A DNA stretch of 30,777 nt, taken from IMG/VR virus record IMGVR_UViG_3300018405_000049, positions 1 to 30,777 of that record; one strand, written 5' to 3'. Below the pieces are notes generated by a model, which worked only from the letters and a program-made list of their open reading frames with translations, was not told the origin of the DNA and did not search any database. Shown piece by piece: positions 4,358 to 28,487 of this stretch. The position numbers were made by a program, and so were the translations under genes. Each line of letters opens with the position of its first letter. Position 1 is the stretch's first letter. The DNA comes from a virus. Lineage: Duplodnaviria > Caudoviricetes.

Positions 4358-5182
4358 CTACCATAAAATAATTACTGCACCACCTGCACCACCACCAGAA
4401 GCCGATGATTGATAAGTGTTACCTGTTCCCGTGGAAGAAGCATTTCCACCTGGAACTCCTCCATATCCGCCACGACCGCTTATAGCTGTTCCGTCATTAG
4501 TACCCGTTACAGATGCACCGTAAGTTCCAGACCCCCCATTAAGACCTCCTGTGGAGTAAACTGCGCCACCTCCTCCACCACCGACACTAACAGGCATAGA
4601 TGTTATCGACTCTAATTTAATAGTTAATATTAGGATTTCTCCGGCATTTCCTCCGTTAGCATATGTATATCCGATATGACCTGCACCACCGCCGCCAGCA
4701 CCATAGCCAGATCCGCCGCCGCCAGATAAACCATTATAATTAGAGCCACCTCCTCCACCCTTTACAATACCGCCCGAAGAATCTCTCAACTCTGCGACGT
4801 AGCTTCCGTCGCCGCCAAGACCGGAGCTCACATTTCCAGCGGATGTGCCTCCTCCTCCTCCTCCTAGACCTGGTGGTTTTGTAACGCCGGCATTTCCGCC
4901 ATTTCCGCCATAAAAAGTCATTCCTAAAATATAACCGCCTGCACCGCCGCCGCCGCCAGCACCATTGCCTCGACCACCTCGGCATCCATTACTTGTGTCT
5001 GACCCGCCACTTGCAGTTCCGTATGAACCTAGCGAACTGGCACCGCCAGAGCCGCCCTTTTTCGAAGCGCTCATTCCACCTTGTCCTCCGCCAACAATAA
5101 TAGCAGTTATAGTATCACCTATTGCTAACCCGTAATCAGACGGGGAGAAAGTTCCACTAGCTTCAAATAATTTCATTCCCAT
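4358..5182 (-). CDS. Glycine-rich tail fibre / adhesin-like protein
   Basis: 274 aa with many GGGGG/GGxGG runs, N-terminal FEASGTF...IIVGGGQGG and C-terminal GGGAGGAVIILW typical of phage glycine-rich domains. Confidence 0.7.
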   Translation of the reverse strand: MGMKLFEASGTFSPSDYGLAIGDTITAIIVGGGQGGMSASKKGGSGGASSLGSYGTASGGSDTSNGCRGGRGNGAGGGGGAGGYILGMTFYGGNGGNAGVTKPPGLGGGGGGTSAGNVSSGLGGDGSYVAELRDSSGGIVKGGGGGSNYNGLSGGGGSGYGAGGGGAGHIGYTYANGGNAGEILILTIKLESITSMPVSVGGGGGGAVYSTGGLNGGSGTYGASVTGTNDGTAISGRGGYGGVPGGNASSTGTGNTYQSSASGGGAGGAVIILW

Positions 5183-5200
5183 AACACATAGTCCTTTCTA

Positions 5201-6250
5201 TTAAAAATGGTCTTCTAGATTTACTCTACCAGAAAGCATCATTTGTAATATTGATTGTTGATTTTTATCATTGCCAAATCTCGTCGAGGTAGAAGGAAGA
5301 TCACCTCCTTCACCCTGCAAGATAAAAGACGTTCCGTTATATATTACCGTTATGTATGACCCTGCAACAATCCCGGGTTTAACAGCTAGCCCTTTGGCTG
5401 TATATATCGCGTGCGCCCCTAAATCGTTTACATTTAATGTTGCCCCGGATTGTATGTCGGCGTGGATTTTTAATCTGATTGTTGATCCATCCGATAACGT
5501 TAGGTTTGGTATTGTTGCTACAAAAGCGCTACCAGACCCAGAAGTTGTTACCGGTATTGACATTTTTAAATTATTAATCTCATTTTGAATATTTCCGGCT
5601 GGGTCGTCTCCAAAAAGAGTTTTTATATAATCCAACCAACTTGTAAAGTCAGTCTCTTGAAGATCAATCCAGTTTAAAAATGCTGTTCGATTAGTATCAT
5701 TCCATTCACTAAACTGAGTCTGCCACTGAGCTACAATAGCATCTATAGTCATAGTTTGTAAAATACCTGTTACAAACGGACAAGATGTGGTACCAACTTT
5801 ATTAGTTATGTTAGCCTGTGTTATGGTACTTACCGCCGCACCTACATATATGTGTGCTAACGGGTACTGGTGAACATTTGTAGTGCTTACCATGGTGGGC
5901 GCTACTGGAGAAGTTCCAGGTGTACCCTTTATTATTTTAATACTATTATCTCTAACCGCAGTGTCGTTGTTTACTTCTAAAACCACAGCGTCAATTCGGT
6001 TTAGTATTGATTCTGACTGTGCGACAGTTAGTGGTAGGATAGCGTCATTATAAGTCCAAGTGCTATTAAACCATGCACGACCAATTCCAACTGATATATT
6101 CATACCGGTTGTGGCATTGACCATAAGAGCTGTTCCTATCGATTGAAATACTCCGTCGTTAATTATCCCGTTAAAAATGCTTGACATTTGACCTGCATTA
6201 AACTTTCGGTCATGGTTTATACCGTTAAAAAATCCAGAAGTTATAGTCAT
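5201..6250 (-). CDS. Minor tail / baseplate-fibre (receptor-binding) protein
   Basis: N-terminal SGFFN...DRKFNA..MS..F.GII.DGVF and RIDAVVL motifs of siphophage upper-baseplate proteins, with a C-terminal ATLNVNDLGA fibre-like domain. Confidence 0.7.
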   Translation of the reverse strand: MTITSGFFNGINHDRKFNAGQMSSIFNGIINDGVFQSIGTALMVNATTGMNISVGIGRAWFNSTWTYNDAILPLTVAQSESILNRIDAVVLEVNNDTAVRDNSIKIIKGTPGTSPVAPTMVSTTNVHQYPLAHIYVGAAVSTITQANITNKVGTTSCPFVTGILQTMTIDAIVAQWQTQFSEWNDTNRTAFLNWIDLQETDFTSWLDYIKTLFGDDPAGNIQNEINNLKMSIPVTTSGSGSAFVATIPNLTLSDGSTIRLKIHADIQSGATLNVNDLGAHAIYTAKGLAVKPGIVAGSYITVIYNGTSFILQGEGGDLPSTSTRFGNDKNQQSILQMMLSGRVNLEDHF

Positions 6251-13037: not shown

Positions 13038-13724
13038 CTACAGTTCAAGTTTATCTCTAAGGTCATCACTATGGCAGTTGTAAATGTATTTAAGTGTTTC
13101 TATTTGGAAGTCTTTCTTTCCAGCTAATAGACCTACCATAAGATTGTACCAGTATTTATACTGATTCACATAATTAGTCTCTTCTGCAGTTAACTTAAAC
13201 CTTTTTTGGATAGCCCACCATAAACACTTTCGTCTAAAGTGATCCCAAACTGCGGGCTCGCTTACAAATTGCTGTGGACAATTTTTATAAGTCACGTCAA
13301 AATGTCTGATTACTCGTTCTATCGGTATGTTATATTGGACCATCTTCAATCCAATTAATTCAGCTGCGACATTCTGAGTTTGCTCTGTTATTATTAATTT
13401 ATTATCCACAATATCAGAACACAATTCAAATCCTAATGAATTAGAATTTAAACATTTACCTTTGAATGTTCCACCGCCAGCAACCGCTCGTTGTTTATCA
13501 GCACAATGCCACGCTGTATCTTTATCTTCGACAACCTGAGTGGCACTATCCTCATCTACAAAGTAGTTTGCAGAGGCGTTCAATACATTATCGTGAAAGT
13601 ATTTAGCATTTCCCTCGTCTGTATCGCCATTATTTGCGGTGTTATGCACAACAAGATACTGAATTGTATACCCAGCTCGTCCTTTACGAAAATTTACATT
13701 TGTTAGGTTTCTTTTAATAATCAT
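13038..13724 (-). CDS. N-acetylmuramoyl-L-alanine amidase (Amidase_2-type endolysin)
   Basis: YLVVHNTAN, SANYFVD, AWHC, SLGFELC and IRHFDVTYKNCP zinc-amidase motifs. Confidence 0.88.
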   Translation of the reverse strand: MIIKRNLTNVNFRKGRAGYTIQYLVVHNTANNGDTDEGNAKYFHDNVLNASANYFVDEDSATQVVEDKDTAWHCADKQRAVAGGGTFKGKCLNSNSLGFELCSDIVDNKLIITEQTQNVAAELIGLKMVQYNIPIERVIRHFDVTYKNCPQQFVSEPAVWDHFRRKCLWWAIQKRFKLTAEETNYVNQYKYWYNLMVGLLAGKKDFQIETLKYIYNCHSDDLRDKLEL

Positions 13725-16087: not shown

Positions 16088-17821
16088 TTAACCGGCTGTG
16101 TTTACTTTAAGTTCTAAAGCAATAGCTGAGAAAGGCTTAGTTAGCGCTCCGGAACAACGAGTTTCGATTAAATACTTTTGCTTGTTGTAGTCAATATCGA
16201 AGTCGTCAAATAGATTAACAGCTCCGCCCTTATCGGCACCAACATTATAATCCGCCAAGTTAACGATAATACCCATTAATGTTAATGTGTCGGTACCGTC
16301 TACTCTTGATTGACCTTCCATAACAGGAACAGTGACGATCTCTCTAACACGAAGTGCTGTGGCTAACTTTTCCACGGAATCATAGATAATTCTTCCAGTA
16401 GTGTCTTCCATAAGTAGACAATCAGTTAACACATCTTCTGTGCAATATAATGTTGGAGAACCAGAACCCTTATACGCTTTTCTAGACTTAACAGCAGCAC
16501 GAATAAATGCCTTAGCCTTAGCGTCTGGTGTTGCATCTGAAGCCACGCTTACTGCCTGTTTAATTGTATATAGAGCTTCATCTTTCCAGATAGGTCTAAT
16601 GTTTGTTTCGTTAACCTTATCGTCGGAGGAATTAAGTCTACCGTCGCCGATAAGAACGGCTCTTGCAATTTCTTCATCAAGCATCATTCGCATTTCAGAC
16701 TTAAGCCAAGCAACTACGTCGAAATCGGTGATGTCGACTACGTCATCTCGGTCAAGCTTCTGTTTCTTATAAATTGTAGTCGGTGTCGTGCTTCTCTTAA
16801 GTAAAGAGAACACTTCTTCGGTCTTAAGATTCCCTGTAATATAACCCTTTGCTCTTGCGTCTGCTTCGGTAATATCAGCAAAGATAGACTTAATTCTGGA
16901 GAATGGAGTATTATGTACTGCGTTCATAACCTTTGTAACCCAACCCATATCTCTTTGAATAAACATAGGTGTATTTTCAATAGTTTTTGCGTCTGGCTGT
17001 AAATAGCCAATGTTTGTAATCCCATGCTCAAGTACACTCTCTTTAAGACTTCCGCATCTCTTAGCGTCGCTAATAATAGCAGCCATCTCGGAATGACTTA
17101 ATACATCATCCTTAGTGTTCTTTTCCTGATCAAATAAATTATGTTTCATAGTATCGTCTCCTCCTTTAGGATCTTCATTTTTGGCAGCGACATCTTCTAT
17201 CGCCTGAGCGATCATAGCATAAACAACTGTTTGTTGTTTTTCACTTAATGTGTTAAACACATCAGCTACTGTTTCTTCGGATTTAGCAGGATCTACTTTG
17301 TCCTTATGTTCTAATTTATCCAAACCGTCTTCTCCTTCTTCTTTTTCGTCTTTTCCGGAGTCGTCGGAATGATACATTTCGATTTTTTCTCCAGTACAAA
17401 AGATAGCTTCTTCGTTAGTCAATTCACTATGACTAATTACTGATTGAATTAGTGCTTCTGGATTAGCCCCAGCAAGAACCAAACTAACTTCTTTAATTGC
17501 GCCGTGAAGAACATTTTCTCCCTGTTGTTTTAGTTGATTTGCAAATATCGATAACGCGTCGACATCCCCATGTTCAACTAAGACCTTGGTTAGTTTACCA
17601 GATTCAGTATCGTTAAACGTACAGTAAGCATACACCCCTTCTTTTCTATTTTCTAATATAGCATGACCGAGTATACTTTCTGGAGCATCGTGTTGGTGCA
17701 TCCATACTAACGGTACTTTTTTACCGTCGTTATGTTTAAATGCATCTTTTCTAATGATTCGCCCATCCGAACATTTAATATCGTTTCTGGTTGCCCAACC
17801 ACTAAAATCGTATTTATCCAT
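16088..17821 (-). CDS. Prohead protease-major capsid protein fusion
   Basis: N-terminal HK97-type protease (FSGWAT, VPLVWMHQH, LSIFA, EVSLVLAGANP), acidic linker, then HK97-fold capsid region (LDEEIARAVLIGDGR, FDDFDIDYN..KYLIETR.SGAL). Confidence 0.88.
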   Translation of the reverse strand: MDKYDFSGWATRNDIKCSDGRIIRKDAFKHNDGKKVPLVWMHQHDAPESILGHAILENRKEGVYAYCTFNDTESGKLTKVLVEHGDVDALSIFANQLKQQGENVLHGAIKEVSLVLAGANPEALIQSVISHSELTNEEAIFCTGEKIEMYHSDDSGKDEKEEGEDGLDKLEHKDKVDPAKSEETVADVFNTLSEKQQTVVYAMIAQAIEDVAAKNEDPKGGDDTMKHNLFDQEKNTKDDVLSHSEMAAIISDAKRCGSLKESVLEHGITNIGYLQPDAKTIENTPMFIQRDMGWVTKVMNAVHNTPFSRIKSIFADITEADARAKGYITGNLKTEEVFSLLKRSTTPTTIYKKQKLDRDDVVDITDFDVVAWLKSEMRMMLDEEIARAVLIGDGRLNSSDDKVNETNIRPIWKDEALYTIKQAVSVASDATPDAKAKAFIRAAVKSRKAYKGSGSPTLYCTEDVLTDCLLMEDTTGRIIYDSVEKLATALRVREIVTVPVMEGQSRVDGTDTLTLMGIIVNLADYNVGADKGGAVNLFDDFDIDYNKQKYLIETRCSGALTKPFSAIALELKVNTAG

Positions 17822-19550
17822 TTTGAATTTCCTCCTTCTTACTTTTCTTTGATTTAGTTTTTGTCTTTATAAATGATTTAGAAGCTCTAATTTTGTCCAC
17901 CTCAGCCGCGTACTTTTCGTCGTATTCGGTTTTTAAATCTTCTCGTGCTTTTTTATTTTGTGCACGCAGATCGTCTATCTGTTTCTGAAATCTCTCTTTA
18001 TAAAGAATTTTCTGAGTAGGGTTCATGTTTTTAAGTTGTTCCCTTATAGAATCGATTTTGGACATCATATCTTCTTTTTGTTGATCAAGTTTCGTCTTAT
18101 GTTCGTCCTTGATTTTTTGCTTGACATATGCCGCTGCTTGTTTGCCCGAATCACTCAAACCAGATGTGGACGTTCGACCTTTTAGATTCTTCGTTCTCTC
18201 ATAATATTCATGAGCTTTGGCTGGATCATAGTATTCGCTGGCATAATGTTTAATCTCGCCATCACTATTTAGTTCGTCTTCTAATTGGTCTAGGTTGTCA
18301 TCGACTTCGTCTAGCTCGTCAACGTCTGACGAATACTGATCTTCGACGGGGATTTGCGTTTGATCTGCATCCGATGATCGGTTAGCGATGTTACTATTTT
18401 CTAGTTTATCAGCTTTTGGATCTTTTGACGGCTTCATACCAATAGCTTGTCGTATCTCATTAGACGAGGCAATTTCATTCCTTGTAAATTTATCTGCGAT
18501 TTCAGCAATGGTTGATACCGGAACTAATTTGAACGGATCTCGAAAGAATACAATAGATTGTTTTTGTGTTCGGGCAGTTTTTGTTAGAAACTTTCGTTTC
18601 ATCTCATCAACTATTGCCGAGACAATTGGTTCTATTGTTCTGTTATAATAATTAAGCATCGTCGTTTCATCAGCAGTTCCGTCTAATATACCCTGAGTTA
18701 TACCTAACTGGCTATAAAGCATACTCGTTAAATATTGTATCTGGGCCATTAAATTATTTTCGACTGGTCGGTTTAATTGGGTTATTCGCTCTGTGCCATC
18801 GGTATAAGCAATACCATACTGCGACCCAGATAACTGATTCTCAATGTCCGCACGTCGACTTTCTGCTTGTTTACGGCGAGCCTCTGTTTTTATAACATAT
18901 GGTAACTGAATTATTAGGTCTAATTTTCCAGAACCACTTTGTTTATCGATGGAGTCCAAAATATTAAGTTTATAGATTAATCGTTTTAATGTTGAATTCG
19001 GTTCATTAACTACTGCATATAGCGGGTTTTCGACAATAACAGTACTTTTTTTAGGAACTAACACATCCTCTTTTTGTCCTGTTTGTTCATTGTAAACTCG
19101 AATTCTTACATGCTGTGGAAACCAATCTAGAATCTTTCCTGTACGCATTGATAACACATCGTAAGAGCCAACATTCGGGTCTATGGTGGTATCAATTGGG
19201 GTAACAGCAACGCAACCTTCGTCTAACATTGACATTACAATGTCTTGCATAAATGCTCGTCCGGTTTGATCCGTGTTAGCATCTAATATTAGACAATTGT
19301 TAAGTCCAGACGATATAACTGATTGAAATCTATCGTCCTCATCTAATTTAACATGTTGTATAATTAGTGATGAAACGTCTAACGCAATTCTATTATAAAC
19401 CGACGTAATTATTGACTTTTCATTTCCGCCAGTAAATCTAGGACGATCTGGTCGGTAATTAGATGATGCACCACCAATAGGCACTCTATATGTTGGGTCT
19501 TTATTTGTAAAAGCATTATAGGCATGTTGGAGCCTGTCCGTTAGTCCCAT
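17814..19550 (-). CDS. Portal protein with long C-terminal extension
   Basis: Follows TerL, with SVYNRIALDV, DIVMSMLDEG, NYYNRTIEPI and SNEIRQAIG portal motifs. About 190 extra residues (acidic linker plus basic coiled coil) follow. Confidence 0.88.
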   Translation of the reverse strand: MGLTDRLQHAYNAFTNKDPTYRVPIGGASSNYRPDRPRFTGGNEKSIITSVYNRIALDVSSLIIQHVKLDEDDRFQSVISSGLNNCLILDANTDQTGRAFMQDIVMSMLDEGCVAVTPIDTTIDPNVGSYDVLSMRTGKILDWFPQHVRIRVYNEQTGQKEDVLVPKKSTVIVENPLYAVVNEPNSTLKRLIYKLNILDSIDKQSGSGKLDLIIQLPYVIKTEARRKQAESRRADIENQLSGSQYGIAYTDGTERITQLNRPVENNLMAQIQYLTSMLYSQLGITQGILDGTADETTMLNYYNRTIEPIVSAIVDEMKRKFLTKTARTQKQSIVFFRDPFKLVPVSTIAEIADKFTRNEIASSNEIRQAIGMKPSKDPKADKLENSNIANRSSDADQTQIPVEDQYSSDVDELDEVDDNLDQLEDELNSDGEIKHYASEYYDPAKAHEYYERTKNLKGRTSTSGLSDSGKQAAAYVKQKIKDEHKTKLDQQKEDMMSKIDSIREQLKNMNPTQKILYKERFQKQIDDLRAQNKKAREDLKTEYDEKYAAEVDKIRASKSFIKTKTKSKKSKKEEIQNG

Positions 19551-19564
19551 TTTGAATTTCCTCC

Positions 19565-21310
19565 TTATTCGAATGCGTCTTTGTTTTGTTTATATGCGAC
19601 GTACGCATCCATCATAGCTGCCACCGCATCAATCTTTTGATCGGATCGCTTCTTAAACAACTTTCTATTACCGTTAGTGTCTTCTAAGGTTATACAGTTG
19701 CCCATAGCAAACGTCATGAGTTCCTCGTCAAAGATAAGCATTCTCTCTTCTGATAATTTCTTAAGTTCGCCAAGTGGAACCGACTCAGTCTTGGCCCCCT
19801 GTATAACTTTTACTATGCCAAATGGCCCGTTTTCAGATTCCCATCGAGTAACGAATTCTTTAGCATTGTAAGGGTCAAACCCAAAACATCTAACGTCATA
19901 TCCAAGTTCACATATGTGATTATCTAGATCGTCGTAAACATCCATCATGTCTAAAACGGTCCCCGGTAAAACAACCAGACTGCCTTCTTTGATAAACTGA
20001 TCGTACTTTATTCTCATTGCGCCCGGTAATTTTGCTAGGGTGTGTTCGGTTATGTAGTTTCTGGTCTTTATTCCAAAAGCCCCTCGAACCAATGGGAATA
20101 AGAACGTAAACGAACAGAAGTCATCGCCCTGTGACAGGTCTCCTCCAAGAGCGCACGGTAACTTCCAAAACTCTCGTGGTTTATGACTTAGTGTCTCTTC
20201 ATAAGTAAAGTAGTATGTGTAACCCTCCATTGGAATGCCAAAACGTTTAGCTAGGATATCATTACGGGCAGCTGGAGCTTTCTCAGCTCTATCTACGTCT
20301 AATTGATACGTTTCATAACTAACTGTCTTGCCAAGATTGGGGTTGGCTTTTAACCACATGTCTGGATTGCTAACTTCTTCAACTGAATCCAACTTATACC
20401 ACCAAATCGAAACGTGAGGATTGATATAGTCACCTTTAAGTATGTCGGCTAACTCCATTTTGATTGTGTCGCCGCTACCGTTTCGAACAGTACCTTCGGA
20501 ACTCATTGCTACGATTAAGTAGTCGTCAAGTTTAGAAGCACCTTGTTCAATTGCACCTATAACATCTTCTCGGATATCCCCTGAGAGCCATTCGTCAACG
20601 GTAGCAATCTTACACCGAAGACCTTGAAGCTTGTTAATGCTCATTGGTCGTATTTCAATGATAGAGCCAGTAAGGAAGTTTTCTATTCCCTTTTTAGTTG
20701 ACGCCAACTTCATACGATTTGCTTTTGAACCGGTCGTATTTTGCATTGACCCATCAGTTAAGAATTTAAATAGTGGTCCTCTAGAACGAACTATTGCCGT
20801 TCTAATTGGAGACATTACTTCTTCGGCCTGTTTCATGGTTGGAGCGGTTGTGATTTGATGAGTTGTGGATGTGTCTACGTTTTGGAAGAACGATTGAACA
20901 CACGAACCATATACCGACTTGGCGGCACCTCTTCCAACTATTAAAAATTGTTTGTTGATGAGTCGTTTTTTGACCATCTTCTTAACAAAGTGTCCACCAT
21001 GTCCATCGGGGTTTGGTTCATAAACACTACGTTCAACATAGTAAAACCATGCGAGTGCAGATTCTCCCCATAATTTAAAAGTGTCTAAAAGATTTAAATC
21101 AGAACCATCGGTTAGTGTTAACTCAGCTTCGCAATACTTAATCCAGCCGTCTATAGCTTGATCGTCGTAATAAATACCGGGATTAGCAATTAACTCGTCA
21201 ATTCTATTCATCTCCATTGAGACTTCTTTATTGACTGGTATCTCACTATGCACGACGGCATCTCTAAACATGCCGTAATACTTTGGAACGGCGGTGTTAG
21301 ATAATGCCAT
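19565..21310 (-). CDS. terL: Terminase large subunit
   Basis: Walker A-like VGRGAAKS, Walker B ATVDEW, nuclease-domain GGDLSQGDDF, FDPYNA and KIDAVAAMMDA. Confidence 0.93.
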   Translation of the reverse strand: MALSNTAVPKYYGMFRDAVVHSEIPVNKEVSMEMNRIDELIANPGIYYDDQAIDGWIKYCEAELTLTDGSDLNLLDTFKLWGESALAWFYYVERSVYEPNPDGHGGHFVKKMVKKRLINKQFLIVGRGAAKSVYGSCVQSFFQNVDTSTTHQITTAPTMKQAEEVMSPIRTAIVRSRGPLFKFLTDGSMQNTTGSKANRMKLASTKKGIENFLTGSIIEIRPMSINKLQGLRCKIATVDEWLSGDIREDVIGAIEQGASKLDDYLIVAMSSEGTVRNGSGDTIKMELADILKGDYINPHVSIWWYKLDSVEEVSNPDMWLKANPNLGKTVSYETYQLDVDRAEKAPAARNDILAKRFGIPMEGYTYYFTYEETLSHKPREFWKLPCALGGDLSQGDDFCSFTFLFPLVRGAFGIKTRNYITEHTLAKLPGAMRIKYDQFIKEGSLVVLPGTVLDMMDVYDDLDNHICELGYDVRCFGFDPYNAKEFVTRWESENGPFGIVKVIQGAKTESVPLGELKKLSEERMLIFDEELMTFAMGNCITLEDTNGNRKLFKKRSDQKIDAVAAMMDAYVAYKQNKDAFE

Positions 21311-21322
21311 TTTGAATTCTCC

Positions 21323-21496
21323 TTATTTCTTGGTACGATGTATAAGTATTGGTGTTCCGATTATTGCTTTGTTTGTGGAATCGGTTTTTCTAGTAACCCC
21401 CCAATGTGTGACCGGGTCTTCTTTCGTTGGAATCGTTTCTAAATCCATGTCAAAACTACCCATTCGTTGAACGAATTCATCATAATCTTTATTCAT
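21323..21496 (-). CDS. Small hypothetical protein with internal HWGVTR motif
   Basis: ORF filling the gap between the ART-like gene and terL. ATG 21496 has a GAAAGGA RBS (track start 21514). Confidence 0.55.
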   Translation of the reverse strand: MNKDYDEFVQRMGSFDMDLETIPTKEDPVTHWGVTRKTDSTNKAIIGTPILIHRTKK

Positions 21497-21514
21497 TATT
21501 AATCGTCCTTTCAT

Positions 21515-22393
21515 TTATGAGGCATCTACAGTAATAGCAAACATTTGACGTTGTTCGTCAAACTCCAACTTACGATAGGTTAACTTTTCTGGTGCTAAAA
21601 TTGCCTCTTGGTTACTTCTAGTGTTAACAAGAGATTTGCCAGTACTAGTTTTACCATCAGCTAATACTCCAGGACAACCTTTACAGTTTATTACCATATA
21701 GGTGTTGTATGTCTTTGCTGCTGTCGGGTTAACTGCTCGCCATGTGTCAATAGCAAATAACGGAGAAGTACTCGTTGAGAATACTCGACTCTCTTTATTC
21801 GATTTACCAGAGAAATTGTTAGATAGTCCAGCAAACATACTTTTCATTTCTTCGTCATCTATTTGATCTGCCTTTTTAGCAATACCATTAGCAGAGAATT
21901 TAAGATTACAACTTCTATACACAGTAACATCATCTACTTTATTCTTACGAAGGGTCTTTTTTAATTTAGCAGCATCTTCGGCATACGCTTTAGGGTCGCC
22001 TATAGCCAAGTAACCGTTAACGCCTCGAGAATATCTAGCTGAGTCGGTATACGTTTTTAAGTTTTTTAAGTCGTTGTCGTCGAGATTGTGGTAGACGGCT
22101 TTCTTATGAGTCGCTATACCAACACTCTCAATTGCTTTGAGCGCTCTAGGATTACTAGGAAGTACCCCATCTCTGTGAACAGCAGCTAGAGTATAATCAG
22201 CTAATAATTGAATGTCGTCATTAACTTTGTTAGCTAATTTACGAACTTTATACTTCATCTCTCTAGGGTTAGCTTGAGCGGCAACACTATAAACCTTTCG
22301 CTCGACCGACTTTTTAATGTTTGATAGTTGAGCATCAGTACGGGTAACTCCCCAATGCATTCCTTTAACGCCATAGTGATATAATTGGGTCAT
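21515..22393 (-). CDS. Putative ADP-ribosyltransferase (VIP2/Alt-like R-S-E fold) with N-terminal HYGVKGMHWG tag
   Basis: LKTYT...Y.RGVNGYL helix, VTVYR (R), FSTSTS (STS) and SNQEAIL (catalytic E) in the correct order and spacing. ATG 22393 has a GGAGG RBS. Confidence 0.7.
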   Translation of the reverse strand: MTQLYHYGVKGMHWGVTRTDAQLSNIKKSVERKVYSVAAQANPREMKYKVRKLANKVNDDIQLLADYTLAAVHRDGVLPSNPRALKAIESVGIATHKKAVYHNLDDNDLKNLKTYTDSARYSRGVNGYLAIGDPKAYAEDAAKLKKTLRKNKVDDVTVYRSCNLKFSANGIAKKADQIDDEEMKSMFAGLSNNFSGKSNKESRVFSTSTSPLFAIDTWRAVNPTAAKTYNTYMVINCKGCPGVLADGKTSTGKSLVNTRSNQEAILAPEKLTYRKLEFDEQRQMFAITVDAS

Positions 22394-22407
22394 AAGTATA
22401 ACCTCCA

Positions 22408-22944
22408 TTAATTTCCAAATATTTCGTCAAGAATAGATTGTGTTCTTACTTCTCTAGCTGCGTCGGTTTGTCCTCTTTTTTCTAGCATTTTACTACGCAA
22501 ACGAGCCGCAGTTGCATCATTTCCCCCAAACAACTCTTTTGTGATTTGTCTAGCTCTCAGTTCTCTTGCAGCATCATTTCGCCCTTGTTTCTGTAACATG
22601 CTAATTCTAATGTTTGTGGCTATCTTATCCAAATCAGCTTTTTCTTCGTCTGTTAAGTATGACTTTTTAGGAGCCGGTTGGTCTTTCATTTTTTTTAATT
22701 TTAAAGTATTCTTTTCTATACGCTTTTCAAGAGCTTTTTTATCTCTTTCATCGTACGCCGCATGTCGCTTTTTGGTTATACCTCGACTAGTATGTCCACC
22801 GTTGTCTAGTTTTGTAAGGGCTTTTTTATCGAAAGCTATTTGTCTACTTGTAGTTATTCCTCGACCAGCTCTTTGCCCCCAATGCATTCCTTTTACACCA
22901 AAATGTATTAGTTGGTCGTCTTTAATTTTTATAAAGTCAGCCAA
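22408..22944 (-). CDS. Basic hypothetical protein with N-terminal HFGVKGMHWG tag
   Basis: TTG start with AAGGAGG RBS, shared tag, and a C-terminal ~36-aa duplication. Confidence 0.75.
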   Translation of the reverse strand: MADFIKIKDDQLIHFGVKGMHWGQRAGRGITTSRQIAFDKKALTKLDNGGHTSRGITKKRHAAYDERDKKALEKRIEKNTLKLKKMKDQPAPKKSYLTDEEKADLDKIATNIRISMLQKQGRNDAARELRARQITKELFGGNDATAARLRSKMLEKRGQTDAAREVRTQSILDEIFGN

Positions 22945-22960
22945 GTATCGACCCTCCTTT

Positions 22961-23383
22961 TTAATTACCTTTCAGTTGTTTCATAGCAAGCGCTATTCCA
23001 ATAGCTGAACTACCAATTGCTAGGACGCTTCCACCAACATCTAACGCGCTTTTAGCATAAGCCTGTCCTTTTGAAATTTGATTAGCCGAAAGATTTGCAT
23101 ATTGCTGCTCCATATTCATTCTTGCAACCTTAGCTTTTAACTCGGCATCAGATAGTTTGGCAATATCTTCTTGATTTTTAGCAGCTCGTGCAACGGATAT
23201 TGATTTGTTAATTTTTCCACCTTGTTCCGTAATTTTAGAAGAGTGGTCGGTAACTTCCTTGGCACGGATTAATTGATCGGTTGTCATCTTATGTTTTTCA
23301 CCGCCCGAACTCTCAGAGTTTGAACCTCTCCTAACGCCCCAATGCATTCCTTTGATGCCAAAATGTAATATTTCGTTATTCAC
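22961..23383 (-). CDS. Hypothetical protein with N-terminal HFGIKGMHWGVRR tag and hydrophobic C-terminus
   Basis: Shared tag, LSDAELKAKVARMNMEQQY motif and a Gly/Ala-rich C-terminal helix. Confidence 0.75.
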   Translation of the reverse strand: MNNEILHFGIKGMHWGVRRGSNSESSGGEKHKMTTDQLIRAKEVTDHSSKITEQGGKINKSISVARAAKNQEDIAKLSDAELKAKVARMNMEQQYANLSANQISKGQAYAKSALDVGGSVLAIGSSAIGIALAMKQLKGN

Positions 23384-23747
23384 TTATTTCACCACCTTCT
23401 ACAACTGGCGTATAACCAGGATCGACTTCTGCTAATATTCGGTATTCTAATTCGTTTACTTGTTCCTTCATAGAGGCTACTGCCGCCGAACTAGCAGGTG
23501 GGTCAAATATCAGCTTCACCTTTAGATACACATATGTTTTTACAAATTCGAGTTTTGTACCTTCTCCCAAGAAATCAGTCCATGCCGATTCTGCAGTTGC
23601 TATAAATCCAGTATCTGGTCCAACTCCAAGTTGTCTTAGTATTCCAAACGTGGTGTTTGTGTGGATTAAAATATCGGTATCGAAGTGCGTATAACTTGCA
23701 TCTCCACCTCCGATTAACTTCTTTAGTGTTTCAAGTATACCCGTCAT
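23376..23747 (-). CDS. Putative head-tail adaptor (connector) protein
   Basis: ILETLKKLIG...FDTDILIH.N..F..L.QLGVG...YVYLKVKLIFDPP helical protein, recalled as the gp6/gp15-like adaptor in related phages. Confidence 0.6.
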   Translation of the reverse strand: MTGILETLKKLIGGGDASYTHFDTDILIHTNTTFGILRQLGVGPDTGFIATAESAWTDFLGEGTKLEFVKTYVYLKVKLIFDPPASSAAVASMKEQVNELEYRILAEVDPGYTPVVEGGEISE

Positions 23748-23761
23748 CGTAGATCTCCTAT

Positions 23762-24154
23762 CTATTTAAGCGTAATATATTGTTTCATACAATATCCATC
23801 AAAGCCCGCAGATGTACAAATTTTATAGAAATCTTCAGCGGTTTCCTTATCATAAATAATTACCTCAGATCCTGATCTGAGTACACCGACAACATCACAC
23901 TCAATATTTGGTTCGCTTCTGACATTCAATGAATCGCAATCAGAAACCACACCAATTACTTTGTCATATGCGTCTGTTTTTTCATCACCTTCGGATTCCA
24001 CCTCTGTAGTTTCGTCTACTAACACTTCACTTTCTTCTTTACTCTCGGTTTCTAATTCAGTGTTTGTAGTTTCGGCTGCTGGAATTTTAATTTCTTCTTC
24101 ATTGTTTTTTAAAGCATCAATATTTTCGATGCCGCTTGTTCTTCTTCCACTCAT
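23762..24154 (-). CDS. SH3b-domain protein with acidic N-terminus
   Basis: LNVRSEP...VVGVL..GSEV.I...FYKI...GFDGYC is a bacterial SH3 signature. ATG 24154 has an AGGAGG RBS. Confidence 0.75.
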   Translation of the reverse strand: MSGRRTSGIENIDALKNNEEEIKIPAAETTNTELETESKEESEVLVDETTEVESEGDEKTDAYDKVIGVVSDCDSLNVRSEPNIECDVVGVLRSGSEVIIYDKETAEDFYKICTSAGFDGYCMKQYITLK

Positions 24155-24171
24155 GATAAACCTCCTATGAG

Positions 24172-24606
24172 TTAACTTCGCCAAGGACATGTGTCATTCC
24201 TTGATCGTTCAATTGGTACGCGACGATTTATTAAAGATAAGTCACCATAATGTATAGCGTTATGTGTTGACAAAATGGTTGTTATAAGATACTCGGGATC
24301 AAATAAGAATTGACTTCGGAGTTCTATATCTTCTTTAGTGAGTGCATTCATATGATGTATTAACGCAAAACCTTTCGGTATATCATAACCATCCACACCT
24401 AAGTCACATCCTAAATCTCGAATTATAATTTGTCTTCTGGTATCTTTCCATTCTTGAGTTTTGTAAAATATCTGGTTTAGATATCGATCAAAACCAAAAG
24501 TATCTTTACAGACGGTTCTATCCAATCGTAAGTATTCGAATCTTTCTTCAAATGTTTTGAGTCTTGATAGTTCGGAATACGTTCTAATAATCATTTGAAT
24601 CACCAT
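24172..24606 (-). CDS. HNH endonuclease (terminase-associated)
   Basis: EWKDTRRQIIIRD.GCD...IHHMN...LIT....THNAIH. Adjacent to putative TerS. Start may be ATG 24594. Confidence 0.8.
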   Translation of the reverse strand: MVIQMIIRTYSELSRLKTFEERFEYLRLDRTVCKDTFGFDRYLNQIFYKTQEWKDTRRQIIIRDLGCDLGVDGYDIPKGFALIHHMNALTKEDIELRSQFLFDPEYLITTILSTHNAIHYGDLSLINRRVPIERSRNDTCPWRS

Positions 24607-24922
24607 GTCCGCCGTACTGCTTCATTGCAACAATGGCGTTTTTATATAACTCTTCTATAACTGCTCCTGACTCAAGTGCTTTTGTCTTTGCCGACATTAA
24701 TTTCTTCTGTTCCAGTAAAATTTCTTTTTCCAATCGAGCACTGGTAGACCCCATCTTTAAAAAATGACTTATGACTTGTGACGAGGCAGTTCCGTCTGCT
24801 AACTGTCTTTCAGCAAGATCTGTAGCTAAAGAGATCAATTGATTTTCTCTAGCTTCTGGAGATAAAGCTGGTCTAATTTTTTTAGTTGATCCAGAAGAAC
24901 TTGACGATCCGACTTTAGGCAT
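24584..24922 (-). CDS. Putative terminase small subunit
   Basis: First gene of the head operon, 112-aa helical protein (RPALSPEARENQLISLA.DLAE.QL..GTASSQVI.HFLK). Assignment is mainly positional. Confidence 0.5.
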   Translation of the reverse strand: MPKVGSSSSSGSTKKIRPALSPEARENQLISLATDLAERQLADGTASSQVISHFLKMGSTSARLEKEILLEQKKLMSAKTKALESGAVIEELYKNAIVAMKQYGGHGDSNDY

Positions 24923-24968
24923 CCTTTGTGCCTCCTCTCTAATAGTTTGCTAGTGCTTTTAGTATAGT

Positions 24969-25080
24969 TTGATACAGGTATTAAACACCCACGTAGACTT
25001 CGTTATATACCTCTTTGCTGAAAGGAGCACAAAAACCCAAAGATCGAGCGATGTTCGTAGGTGCTTAATACCTGTATCAA
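24969..25080 (-). ncRNA. Candidate structured RNA: 25-bp stem enclosing a 62-nt region
   Basis: Arms 24969-24993 and 25056-25080 match at 23/25, and both mismatches become G-U pairs on the minus strand. Intergenic, upstream of the head operon. Confidence 0.55.
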
Positions 25081-25247
25081 GTGAATTGTTTTCTCAAATC
25101 CTCCCCCGGGGAATTTTTCGAGACCCACGCGATGACACGGGGGGTGTCAATTTTGCGAGACCCCCCCTATGGTATTAATATAAAAATATTTTTTACTAAA
25201 ACGTCTAGCATTGTTTAATTACGACAGATTGTTTGTTTATTTGTGTA

Positions 25248-25487
25248 TTATTTTTCTTTTATTTTTTTGTAAATGTTTTGAAAGTCATACTTGATGATCT
25301 CGTCAATGGCCCGTTCAATCTCAGCATTATTCTCTTCATCAGACAATTGATCCGAGGTACGGGCTATTCTACCAAGGTAAGAACAAGTACCGTAGCCTTT
25401 CTCGTCGTCGAATAGCAACCAAGAAGTGAAGTCTTTGATCGGGTCATAAGGGTTGTCGAACGTCGTTAACATGCATCTAGTTCCCAT
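25248..25487 (-). CDS. Small acidic hypothetical protein coupled to the polymerase gene
   Basis: ATG abuts the stop of the 999-aa gene. MLTTFDNPYDP...W..FD..KGY.TC.YL.RIA. Confidence 0.8.
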   Translation of the reverse strand: MGTRCMLTTFDNPYDPIKDFTSWLLFDDEKGYGTCSYLGRIARTSDQLSDEENNAEIERAIDEIIKYDFQNIYKKIKEK

Positions 25488-28487
25488 TTAATTATTCACT
25501 CCTTTCCCAAGTGTGTAATTACTTACAGTTGTGGCTGATACACCTATAGCTTTTGCTATTTCAGAAGTGGTGTAACCAGACGCTATCATTGCTTTTATTT
25601 TGTTCTTTTGAACAGGTGTTATGCTAGTCGTAGCTCTTGGTGTTGCTCTTTGTCTAAGCGTATCCGAATCTACATGATTGATGATCTCTGATAACTTATT
25701 AGGGCTTATAGCGCCAGCCTGTATTGCTTCCCATTCTCTATCACTAATAGGAATAGGTTCTCTTTTAGCACCAACAGCTAGTCTAGCTTTAACTAACTCT
25801 TGTTGACTGGCCTTCTTTATCTCACCTGAGGTCATATCGGGGTTGTCTTGTTTCTTTGCATTTATAACAGAATTAGCTATTGTTTGTGCATATCGTTCTC
25901 TAGCAGAATTCTTCTTAGAAATGTTTAGATTTGCTAATAGGGTGTTAACTTCTTGTTGATAAGTTTCTTTAGCAGAACTATTGTACTTGATATCTTCTGT
26001 GGAGATCATCTCTTTTCTAGCAGAGTTAGCTAACGCTTTCATTTGATTAGCGTATTCGCCATACAATTTTTCTTGTTGAGTGCCGGACGATAATGCTAAA
26101 GCATCTTTAGCCTCGGCCATCTTAGTACTAGGTTGTGTTCTCTCTTTAGTTTTCACTACAAAGTCATTAGTAGATTCACCATTCTCAACAGCTTTTCTAT
26201 ATGCTGCCATTTGTTCATTTGTTGGTTTCTCTAATTTCTTAGTCGTTGGATTACGATATTTAACAACATCATATGAACCATCGTTTCTAGTATCAACAAT
26301 AAAGTCGTCTGTGTTATCTCCATTTAATACTGCTTTTTTATACTGACTTAATTGAACAGCTGTTGGTTTTGTCAATTTTCCAGTAGTTGGATCTTTGTAT
26401 TTAACTACATCATAAGGAGTACTCGCTAATTTATACTTAAGTTCACCTGTGTCTGGATCAATTGTAGGGCTTCCTTTTCTCTTAAGAACTGAGGTTTCAG
26501 ACTTAGAACGAGAAATTAAAGTGGACGCGCCTTCTTTATATCGACCGTTTTCGTCTATCTTACCCTGATATTTTTTCTTTAGCAAAGCTATATTATTATC
26601 CAATTCACTCTGTTTGTAATCTAAATGATGTTTCTCGGCATCAATAACAACCATGCTATGTCTTACCGCTTTTGCTAATTCAGGCTCAGTAGCACCTTTT
26701 AATGTCATGTCAGTGATTAAATTAGAAATTCGACCCATCTCGGTTTGGGTGTTTCGCATTGGTCTGAATTCCCTATCGCCGCGATAATAATGTTCTGTTC
26801 CATCAGAATCTTTTGTAACTTTATCATATTGATATGATGACTTTGTATCAAACCCCTCTAATCCTTTTAACGGTTTGGTTGACAATATATTAATTTTATT
26901 GCCTGTTGGTATTGTCATAACTGCATCGCCGTCAAAGTCAGCACCCGATAATCTTTCGGCAACTTTACTATTTATACCTATAGCATCTACTGCATTACCT
27001 AAGATTCTAGCAGCATCTTTATGTTTATTGTTAACTGTTAGTATCGGTATTTCAAAAGTTCCACCATGCGGAAATCGAATTAACGCCAGTTTTTCCCCAT
27101 TTTGATAGGTTGGCGCATATACTTCAGTATCAGGAAGCGTTGTAACTGGAAGTATAACTTTATATTTTTGTCTAGGTAAAGCGGCGGCTTGCAAATGTAC
27201 TGCTGCTGAATCACAATCCTCAGCAAAAGTTTTAAGCATTACTTTTTTAATTGTAGGATTTGTTAATGCTTTTATTTCTTCATATTCAGCCACTTTATTA
27301 GCCGATGCGAGATTTAATTGCTTTTCGATTAATTGTTTTGGTTGCTTCGATAGAAATTGTGATGGTAGATGATCACTCCAATCACCCCAATCACCTTCTT
27401 CGGCTCTTTTATTAATTAATGATAGAGATTGTTTCTTGCCAGTGACAGGGTCTGTATAATCACCATTTGGGTCGTCATAGTATTTCTGTCCGCCAGCTTT
27501 AATTAAAGAACCAAAAGGATTATCAGGATCGGCGCTAATCTTTTTAAGAACATCCATCTTAGGAGTTCCTACTTTTTTATTAGTATTAAACATAACATCT
27601 ACGCCATCCGGTAGATCATCAGAATATATAGCCATACCTTTAAGATATCTATTGCCATCAACCAAAATTCTAACTTGAGCATAGTGTGAATTACCAAGAG
27701 ATAAATCTTCAACACCTCTGCGAAGCTCTATTACGCCATCTTTATGGACGCCTCCTTCTTCTGCGTATCGAATTTTTAATCTGCTAGAATCCATACTTTT
27801 AGGATATACAAAAGCATTAAAGGTATCGCCGCCATCATGTGAAACATATTTATCGACAATGCTATTGATCTTGTCAAATTGGTATATTTCTTTATGCTCT
27901 GTTCCTGGCGGACACAGTACTGTTAACGTTGTCATTTTTCCCGGATTAGTTACTTGTGGAACTCGACCGCCATATGTAGGGTAGCCATCTAATTCGCAAA
28001 TATACAGAGCCTCTTTCATTTTTTCTGGAGAAACACCTAAACTAATATTGACACCGGCCCCAACTTCAACCATTCCTAACTCATCAACTCGTGATTTAAG
28101 GAAGTCTGCTGTTTTTTTAGCCTGATTCATTCTGGCCTCGGCACCTTCATCCAAAAGTGATCTAATTGATGAGTCGTTATTATAACCCATTTCTTTTGTG
28201 ATTTGGGCTAAACTTAATCCGTTATCTCGTAATGTTTTAGCTCTGGCTGCTTCTACAGCTCTTCGTTCATCTCTTGCCAAAGATCTCTGAACTCTAAACT
28301 GAGTGGTTGTTAAACCCATTGCTTCTGCTATGTCATTATCGCTCTTACCGCTATCTTTCATCTCTTCATATCGACTAATAAAATCGCCACTATGTTGATG
28401 GGGGTTTTGACCAGACCCCCATGGATAACGACCAGATCTTCTAAGAACTCCGCTATGTTGGAGTATTTCTTCAATGATTGGATTCAT
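25488..28487 (-). CDS. Putative single-chain two-barrel (DPBB) RNA polymerase with terminal HTH domains
   Basis: LSGADFDGDAV (DFDGD at 26925-26939) preceded by ALIRFPH (RxP motif). HTH-like segments near the N-terminus and at the C-terminus (GYTTSEIAKAIGVSATTVSNY). Confidence 0.75.
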   Translation of the reverse strand: MNPIIEEILQHSGVLRRSGRYPWGSGQNPHQHSGDFISRYEEMKDSGKSDNDIAEAMGLTTTQFRVQRSLARDERRAVEAARAKTLRDNGLSLAQITKEMGYNNDSSIRSLLDEGAEARMNQAKKTADFLKSRVDELGMVEVGAGVNISLGVSPEKMKEALYICELDGYPTYGGRVPQVTNPGKMTTLTVLCPPGTEHKEIYQFDKINSIVDKYVSHDGGDTFNAFVYPKSMDSSRLKIRYAEEGGVHKDGVIELRRGVEDLSLGNSHYAQVRILVDGNRYLKGMAIYSDDLPDGVDVMFNTNKKVGTPKMDVLKKISADPDNPFGSLIKAGGQKYYDDPNGDYTDPVTGKKQSLSLINKRAEEGDWGDWSDHLPSQFLSKQPKQLIEKQLNLASANKVAEYEEIKALTNPTIKKVMLKTFAEDCDSAAVHLQAAALPRQKYKVILPVTTLPDTEVYAPTYQNGEKLALIRFPHGGTFEIPILTVNNKHKDAARILGNAVDAIGINSKVAERLSGADFDGDAVMTIPTGNKINILSTKPLKGLEGFDTKSSYQYDKVTKDSDGTEHYYRGDREFRPMRNTQTEMGRISNLITDMTLKGATEPELAKAVRHSMVVIDAEKHHLDYKQSELDNNIALLKKKYQGKIDENGRYKEGASTLISRSKSETSVLKRKGSPTIDPDTGELKYKLASTPYDVVKYKDPTTGKLTKPTAVQLSQYKKAVLNGDNTDDFIVDTRNDGSYDVVKYRNPTTKKLEKPTNEQMAAYRKAVENGESTNDFVVKTKERTQPSTKMAEAKDALALSSGTQQEKLYGEYANQMKALANSARKEMISTEDIKYNSSAKETYQQEVNTLLANLNISKKNSARERYAQTIANSVINAKKQDNPDMTSGEIKKASQQELVKARLAVGAKREPIPISDREWEAIQAGAISPNKLSEIINHVDSDTLRQRATPRATTSITPVQKNKIKAMIASGYTTSEIAKAIGVSATTVSNYTLGKGVNN

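Follow-up and report, generated by a model that had tools for sequence, protein, structure and literature searches.

Why do proteins as different as an RNA polymerase, an ADP-ribosyltransferase, several small proteins, an extension of the portal and the capsid precursor of one phage carry a short peptide in which a hydrophobic residue stands two positions before a histidine (hydrophobic-x-His)? The question is raised by positions 16,088 to 28,487 of the window, the whole stretch of 30,777 nucleotides that we analyzed, where the head module of a tailed phage, on the minus strand, holds genes for the polymerase, a connector, three tagged proteins, the remnant of a tagged gene, the terminase, the portal and a protease–capsid fusion. 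A first-pass annotation had proposed that the peptide loads interchangeable cargo into the head and is cut at the histidine, and the peptides that it quoted all lie where it had placed them. Its interpretation is supported by the sequence comparisons described here, which make it probable on balance that the head protease cuts after His and that the polymerase, the transferase and the other tagged proteins are packed, trimmed and injected with the DNA. The best reading of the locus appears to be a load-and-trim system resembling that of T4, with a His-specific protease and with a basic tag that likely stays on the cargo.

The protease–capsid fusion and the YonO-like polymerase place this gut-type phage in the group of Lactococcus 1706 and Oengus ('Sisseviridae'). 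Among 50,697 phage records, 244 match the precursor and 250 the polymerase, and both proteins have full-length counterparts in 1706-like, Oengus and AM/AU/DJ/BI phages; the matching records come from Lactococcus 1706-like, Faecalibacterium Oengus, Arthrobacter, Gordonia, Streptomyces and Rhodococcus phages. In the accessible portions of the sources, the 1706 / Oengus / actinophage supercluster and its YonO-like polymerase are described (bioRxiv 10.1101/842583), the candidate family name is used (PMC9723715, PMC10159846), the protease–capsid fusion is likewise noted (PMC5513430) and 80% of infants are reported to have the phage group (PMC10159846). Our comparison covered the best 80 of 600 confirmed terminase-centered viral loci, the best 80 of 309 confirmed genome loci and stretches of eight cultivated phages. 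All window features given below are on the minus strand. Two genes served as reference points: the untagged terminase large subunit (19565..21310, identified by Pfam), which we used as a background control, and the head–tail connector (23376..23747, Pfam Phage_connect_2), the upstream landmark of the tagged-gene cluster.

The protease–capsid precursor

We collected 128 matches to the capsid precursor, 117 of them full length and 73 non-redundant. The prohead protease domain occupies residues 1–128 (17438..17821) and matches Pfam Peptidase_S78 at 22.5 bits (cut-off 21). His42 and Ser91, which on motif grounds are its catalytic residues, are present in 73 of 73 precursors and are invariant in a further alignment of 69. 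In the AlphaFold model of the precursor, the protease is folded to residue 128 with a pLDDT of 95, and two short helices precede the capsid fold. The best fold matches of the protease model in Foldseek are herpesvirus assemblins, with the EBV protease at the top (E 2.5e-4, TM 0.63); the solved phage prohead proteases of the PDB are absent from the matches listed. PDB sequence and profile searches gave no match for the precursor, the protease, the tag or the transferase.

The HK97-fold capsid domain (16088..17023) is predicted from the model and the last His site to run from Gly267 to Gly577 in its mature form (311 aa, 34.4 kDa). Model residues 267–573 superpose on residues 104–383 of HK97 (1OHG), and many other mature capsid superpositions begin at model residues 265–267. 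Because residue 267 pairs with HK97 residue 104, which we take to be the mature start left by a cut directly before it, a cut is expected between His266 and Gly267. When the capsid of phage 1706 is likewise started after its last hydrophobic-x-His, the predicted product has 359 aa and 40.0 kDa, out of a precursor of 74.9 kDa.

The protease domain has internal hydrophobic-x-His-Gly sites of its own (17504–17572), with His106 in 73 of 73 precursors and His84 in 62 of 73; lying inside the folded domain, these are possible self-destruction sites.

A conserved hydrophobic-x-His motif in the capsid linker

Between the protease and the shell domain lies an acidic, scaffold-like linker (residues 129–266; 17024..17437) with hydrophobic-x-His at His131, His151, His172, His227, His243 and His266. 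The first-pass annotation had listed five such sites; the motif is present as described, with the count rising to six through MKH-N at His227, which had been missed, and with LEH-K at His172 set aside as a conserved site since its column is not conserved across precursors. The model has low confidence over most of residues 132–237 (pLDDT below 50 at 132–179, 212–229 and 231–237), and His243 and His266 sit at helix ends of middling model confidence, not in fully disordered chain. The sites lie where a prohead protease would be expected to cut, as had been claimed: the invariant His131 comes just after the last strand of the protease, and His266 stands where the HK97-fold capsid begins.

In the 73 non-redundant precursors, 388 of 416 linker His residues have L/I/V/M/F at position −2 (shuffles: mean 94, maximum 123) and 390 of 416 have a small residue at +1, counts that overstate the number of independent events because the precursor and tag sequences are related by descent. 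MKH-N does not count as independent evidence for a protease site, as it follows a start Met, and we removed the His227 column from the count because its hydrophobic residue is that Met. The remaining columns still give 322 of 351 His with a hydrophobic residue at −2, against a mean of 80 and a maximum of 105 in shuffles, so that the motif is both conserved and well above background, as the first-pass annotation required of it. No residue other than His exceeds 49% for a hydrophobic residue at −2 in the linker. Among control proteins, His fits at 21% in the capsid domain, 19% in the terminase and 14% in the major tail protein, and some short head and packaging controls run higher (portal 49%, connector 50%, a 112-aa family 60%). 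Five core His columns are conserved in the linker, and outside them 37 of 63 His also fit (background 23%). The pattern extends to four distant cultivated phages, where 32 of 37 linker His fit; in phage Qui, the linker is lengthened by a duplicated helical scaffold repeat whose copies are flanked by sites, and all 11 of its His fit. A site of the (I/L)-x-Glu type is not seen in the linker, where a hydrophobic residue precedes Glu by two positions in 16% of 1677 cases versus 93% of 416 for His.

These sites could alternatively form a docking motif that binds the protease or the shell and loads cargo, being no cut site at all or leaving the cargo uncut. That the residue at +1 differs between the two settings (small in the linker; His, Tyr or Phe in the tags) would suit docking, as would the motif copy directly after the start Met, where a cut would remove just three residues. 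We nevertheless regard docking as improbable, since the sites flank pieces that must leave an HK97 shell (after the protease and at the start of the capsid fold), 325 of the 351 linker His are followed by a small residue, as fits a protease site, and polyproteins described below repeat the site ahead of each unit. Cleavage directly after the His remains our preferred reading of the linker.

A predicted nested translation start in the capsid gene

The Met that precedes His227 belongs to a conserved 'KGG..MKHN' motif of the precursor that marks a predicted internal translation start. In the window, AAAGGAGG, which contains a Shine–Dalgarno match, is followed by an in-frame ATG at 17149 (Met225; whole element 17141..17169). 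A Shine–Dalgarno match of at least 5 bases precedes 65 of 67 'KGG..MKHN' Met codons versus 63 of 899 other internal Met codons, and five of the six precursors without this Met use GTG or TTG, so a start codon is kept in 72 of 73. Three actinophages have the same pattern. Because the Shine–Dalgarno match and the start codon are conserved at Met225, we predict that the nested start yields a 353-aa capsid chain without the protease, beside the full fusion. The nested start inside the capsid gene is new here.

A shared N-terminal tag on unrelated head-module proteins

Three window proteins carry the tag in full. EILH-FGIKGMHWGVRR stands near the N terminus of a 140-aa protein (22961..23383; tag 23327–23371), QLIH-FGVKGMHWGQR in a basic 178-aa protein with an orphan body (22408..22944; tag 22870–22911), and QLYH-YGVKGMHWGVTR in a 297-aa ADP-ribosyltransferase of the R-S-E type (21515..22408, with Met6 at 22393; tag 22340–22384). 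The shared peptide is Pfam DUF7211 (PF23847), to which Pfam assigns no function; the 140-, 178- and 297-aa proteins score 34.9, 31.4 and 37.1 bits (cut-off 27), and the cut-off is reached by neither the polymerase, the portal nor a 63-aa open reading frame of the window. Clusters from the ESM Atlas were all DUF7211, and its model of the 140-aa protein is poor. We found no description of the tag in the largely open-access literature searched. It goes unmentioned in the available text of PMC5883640, PMC5513430 and bioRxiv 2024.02.26.582091, and the parts at hand of bioRxiv 10.1101/842583, PMC9723715 and PMC10159846 mention none of the tag, the His sites, the nested start or polymerase packaging.

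The 63-aa frame (21323..21514) had been put forward as a fourth tagged protein. Its VTH-WGVTRK is present, but the gene is decayed: the middle of the tag and the body are lost, and we rejected it as working cargo. It has no Pfam match and is homologous to the leaders of tagged proteins at four loci (L021, L030, L042 and L073) where the gene is whole.

A profile of the tag detects 359 tagged open reading frames in the loci, all on the gene strand. The tag occurs in 115 of 116 loci that hold both connector and capsid (1–8 copies per locus, some loci being near-identical), and 254 of 261 tags lie between these two genes. When the downstream half of the tag is the sole query, the His is lacking in just one of 253 distinct matches, and the other 252 all have the hydrophobic residue as well. 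A matrix trained solely on the six residues before linker His gives a score above 2 to 62% of 239 DUF7211 His and to 0–9% of His in 13 background sets; the window's own three DUF7211 sites score weakly (0.3, 1.6 and −2.9).

What follows the tag varies widely. Single linkage, which can chain, sorts the 229 bodies into 66 families, of which 52 have a single member; the catalogue bears out the first-pass claim of a common tag on otherwise unrelated head-module proteins. The largest recurring body, a family of 105 of the 229 that includes the window's 140-aa protein, is the one widely kept cargo family, and 95 of the 105 lie upstream of the terminase. A Pfam scan of 166 of 243 tagged representatives found a named enzyme or toxin-type domain in 13 and none in the other 153: seven papain-fold toxin domains (one under the cut-off), two GNAT domains, and one each of ADP-ribosyltransferase, 2H, Ntox50 and DUF6883. 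The idea of interchangeable effector cargo therefore holds for the many unrelated bodies and is limited for their function, as most of the tagged cargo is only putative effectors when 13 of 166 carry such a domain.

The window's transferase matches PF03496 at 25.8 bits (cut-off 23.4) and retains its catalytic residues (Arg165, Ser-Thr-Ser 211–213 and Glu268), with Asn-Gln-Glu instead of Glu-x-Glu. In the best 120 of 397 homologues, the Arg and Ser-Thr-Ser motifs are found in 120 and the Gln-Glu pattern in 114; 105 of these 120 have the strict tag, five have a variant, nine start inside the tag and one is a fragment.

The tag follows an acidic leader, and a net basic charge is found in 98% of 224 bodies. 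This basicity, the 153 of 166 scanned proteins with no named enzyme or toxin-type domain and the core-like place of one family beside the terminase in most loci would all agree with a different fate, in which the sites are cut and the tagged proteins serve as basic components of the core or as DNA condensers that remain in the head or are destroyed during maturation, the polymerase tag being a relic. We consider this unlikely. Domains of the transferase, papain-fold toxin, GNAT, Ntox50 and 2H kinds occur among the cargo, and such kinds are known from polyvalent proteins (PMC5512222, as far as its accessible text goes). The transferase has retained its catalytic residues, and the tag of the polymerase is itself strictly conserved, including in distant cultivated phages. 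Injection of the tagged proteins remains the better account.

Short untagged genes stand directly behind papain-fold cargo genes at five loci (L157:8298–8579, L060:4981–5256, L152:4929–5192, L149:9721–9978 and L072:3324–3560). Such genes are arranged like toxin–immunity pairs, and none of 16 checked has a Pfam match above the cut-off.

Sites on the RNA polymerase and the portal

The 999-aa polymerase (25488..28487; PHROG 4291) is, by its sequence, a single-chain, YonO-like two-barrel RNA polymerase with DFDGD at residue 517. It begins EEILQH-SGVLRRSGRYPWG, a variant N-terminal tag (28416–28463). In 34 non-redundant relatives, both the N-terminal hydrophobic-x-His-x-G...SGR[YF]P and the catalytic-loop ADFDGD (DxDGD) occur in 34 of 34. 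A search of the PDB with the polymerase gave a single chance match (E 0.62).

The portal (17814..19550; Pfam, PHROG 11413) carries a C-terminal fusion made up of an acidic linker, an IKH site (18246–18254) and a basic 'YASEYYDP..AHEYY' protein, with EIKH-YASEYY at residue 435. In relatives, the extension stands alone as its own gene; in the window it is fused in frame, with no in-frame start before the site. Among its 31 homologues, 15 of 15 non-redundant motif copies have hydrophobic-x-His, so that the sites of both the polymerase and the portal extension are kept in relatives. The linker-trained matrix scores above 2 for 71% of the 34 polymerase His and 60% of 15 His of the YYDP class. At two further loci (L148 and L068), the portal is fused to a DUF7211 unit. 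An LxH at the N terminus of the portal, considered as an obligatory site, was rejected because it is absent in many relatives.

Yet another post-His peptide, resembling KYI...G.W.Y.Y, is found in three proteins, with a papain-fold domain in the one at L060. Peptides of this type occur at L055:6258–7334, L159:5249–5692, L060:3944–4999 and in the C-terminal part of 1706 orf7; in the L055 proteins, LYH sites stand in tandem. Pfam DUF7211 includes neither the polymerase, YYDP and KYI peptides nor the sites of the capsid linker.

Could the tag simply be a free-standing peptide of intracellular proteins that binds nucleic acid or metal, its likeness to the linker being coincidental? The tag is basic and aromatic, and His-His occurs in 58% of 233 tag seeds, as such a peptide might. 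This is a very improbable explanation given that DUF7211, SGRYPWG, YYDP and, in three proteins, KYI all follow hydrophobic-x-His and that the tagged genes lie in the head module. Of 50,697 phage records, the tag also matches 206; among the 60 matches listed, the genera are those that have this capsid precursor. A peptide tied to the head, with a site common to cargo and capsid precursor, fits these observations better.

Polyproteins and scale

At E up to 0.001, the tag profile finds 49,806 protein clusters built at 50% identity. In the best 150 of these, a set whose scoring favors repeats and whose selection profile includes the His, 142 have two to five tags, spaced 141–449 residues apart (5th–95th percentile), and the units have a median length of 221 aa, each with an acidic leader and a His site. 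Pfam finds GNAT, papain-fold, 2H or barstar domains in nine of 64 of these tagged proteins. A single signal would be enough to load an entire chain; a tag ahead of every unit fits a need of each cut-out piece for its own tag. The multi-tag pattern could also come from simple fusion of tagged neighbors.

In the GenBank record of phage 1706, orf7, which has two tags, and orf75, the tagged polymerase, bear the depositor label 'structural protein', which presumably derives from virion mass spectrometry. The labels are suggestive of packaging, though orf62 and orf71, untagged and far from the structural genes, bear the same one.

Proposed mechanism

We infer packaging into the virion and cleavage after His from the sequence patterns above, and propose the following course. 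The capsid gene would give the full protease–scaffold–capsid chain and the shorter chain from Met225, which has a 42-residue propeptide; that both build the shell seems very likely, and the protease would thereby be placed inside. The protease would free itself and strip the linker at His131, His151, His243 and His266, so that the capsid starts at Gly267. We hold the choice of these sites with strong confidence, and the placing of the cut directly after the His as quite likely. Leader and tag would bring the tagged, mostly basic proteins into the prohead by binding the acidic scaffold or the protease, a step in which we have good confidence. The acidic leaders are likely to be cut off in the same manner, with polyproteins and portal fusions split into units. 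There is perhaps an even chance that the basic aromatic peptide, as the new N terminus, retains cargo within the head or on the DNA up to ejection. Once in the host, the polymerase would transcribe phage genes and the transferase would modify a host target, which we think somewhat more credible than not.

A more far-reaching version is tentative, and we lean slightly against it: the whole would be a modular injection platform, run by a phage group common in the human gut, with a His-specific protease, in which each piece starts with a retained basic retention or ejection peptide, which extends to about 50,000 clusters, which includes a virion-borne polymerase and in which a 20-residue tag loads any protein into a small siphophage.

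Relation to known head-packaging systems

In T4, the prohead protease gp21 cuts after Glu at an (I/L)-x-Glu site. The proposed system resembles that of T4 in its assemblin-fold serine protease, in a short N-terminal signal that is common, judging from sequence, to unrelated head-region proteins including an ADP-ribosyltransferase, and in a protease motif common to shell precursor and cargo, which here is a sequence match by the linker-trained matrix. It differs in that His is predicted where T4 has Glu; prohead proteases with a cut after His are not known to us, and a literature search listed none. In this siphovirus-type HK97-fold phage, one fused gene encodes protease and capsid, and the cargo of the group includes a 999-aa polymerase and multi-tag polyproteins. 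A further difference concerns the fate of the signal. The T4 capsid targeting sequence on IPI–III and Alt is removed by gp21 (PMC7411985, in its accessible part), whereas the conserved basic peptide here follows the likely cut and therefore would stay on the cargo.

Giant phages package a multi-subunit RNA polymerase. They resemble the proposed system in that polymerase and in protease-cut propeptides on cargo, and differ from the window phage in a T4-like site, long propeptides, the multi-subunit form of the polymerase and far larger genomes. In SPN3US and related giant phages, propeptides of head and ejection proteins are cut by the prohead protease, according to the available text of PMC7411985. 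MuF and polyvalent proteins, which include 2H, GNAT and T4 Alt transferase domains, are described as virion-packaged in the accessible text of Iyer et al. 2017 (PMC5512222); like the tagged proteins, they bring variable enzyme domains among the head genes, sometimes fused to the portal, and are thought to be packaged and injected. Unlike them, this phage group uses a peptide of about 20 residues in place of the MuF domain, once per unit, and we found no MuF domain on window proteins (Pfam, PHROG) or on 230 tagged proteins (166 and 64).

If the proposal is true, DUF7211 gains a function, and the 49,806 clusters become candidate injected host-takeover and counter-defense proteins. It would also mean that a small tailed phage packages a YonO-type polymerase and that its prohead protease has a specificity not known from another phage; a short tag might offer a way to load phage heads with chosen proteins. 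The cultivated dairy and soil members of the group make these predictions easy to test.

Other genes of the module and its surroundings

Just upstream of the connector, an SH3_3 protein with an acidic N-terminal half (23762–24190) has 69 homologues across the loci, none of them tagged. An Amidase_2 gene (13038–13724) lies between a gene of the tail-chaperone region and a neck gene, in a slot that holds genes of differing length in relatives, and at the tail-tip end a Gly-rich 274-aa protein and a 349-aa protein (4358–6250) have no Pfam match. Head-module insertions of untagged clusters of small Asn/Gln-rich genes are found at L076:2663–5355, L063:1368–3028 and L159:7170–8676. At L127:5748–7900, a 481-aa P-loop ATPase and a 236-aa partner stand among the module genes and resemble a defense pair.
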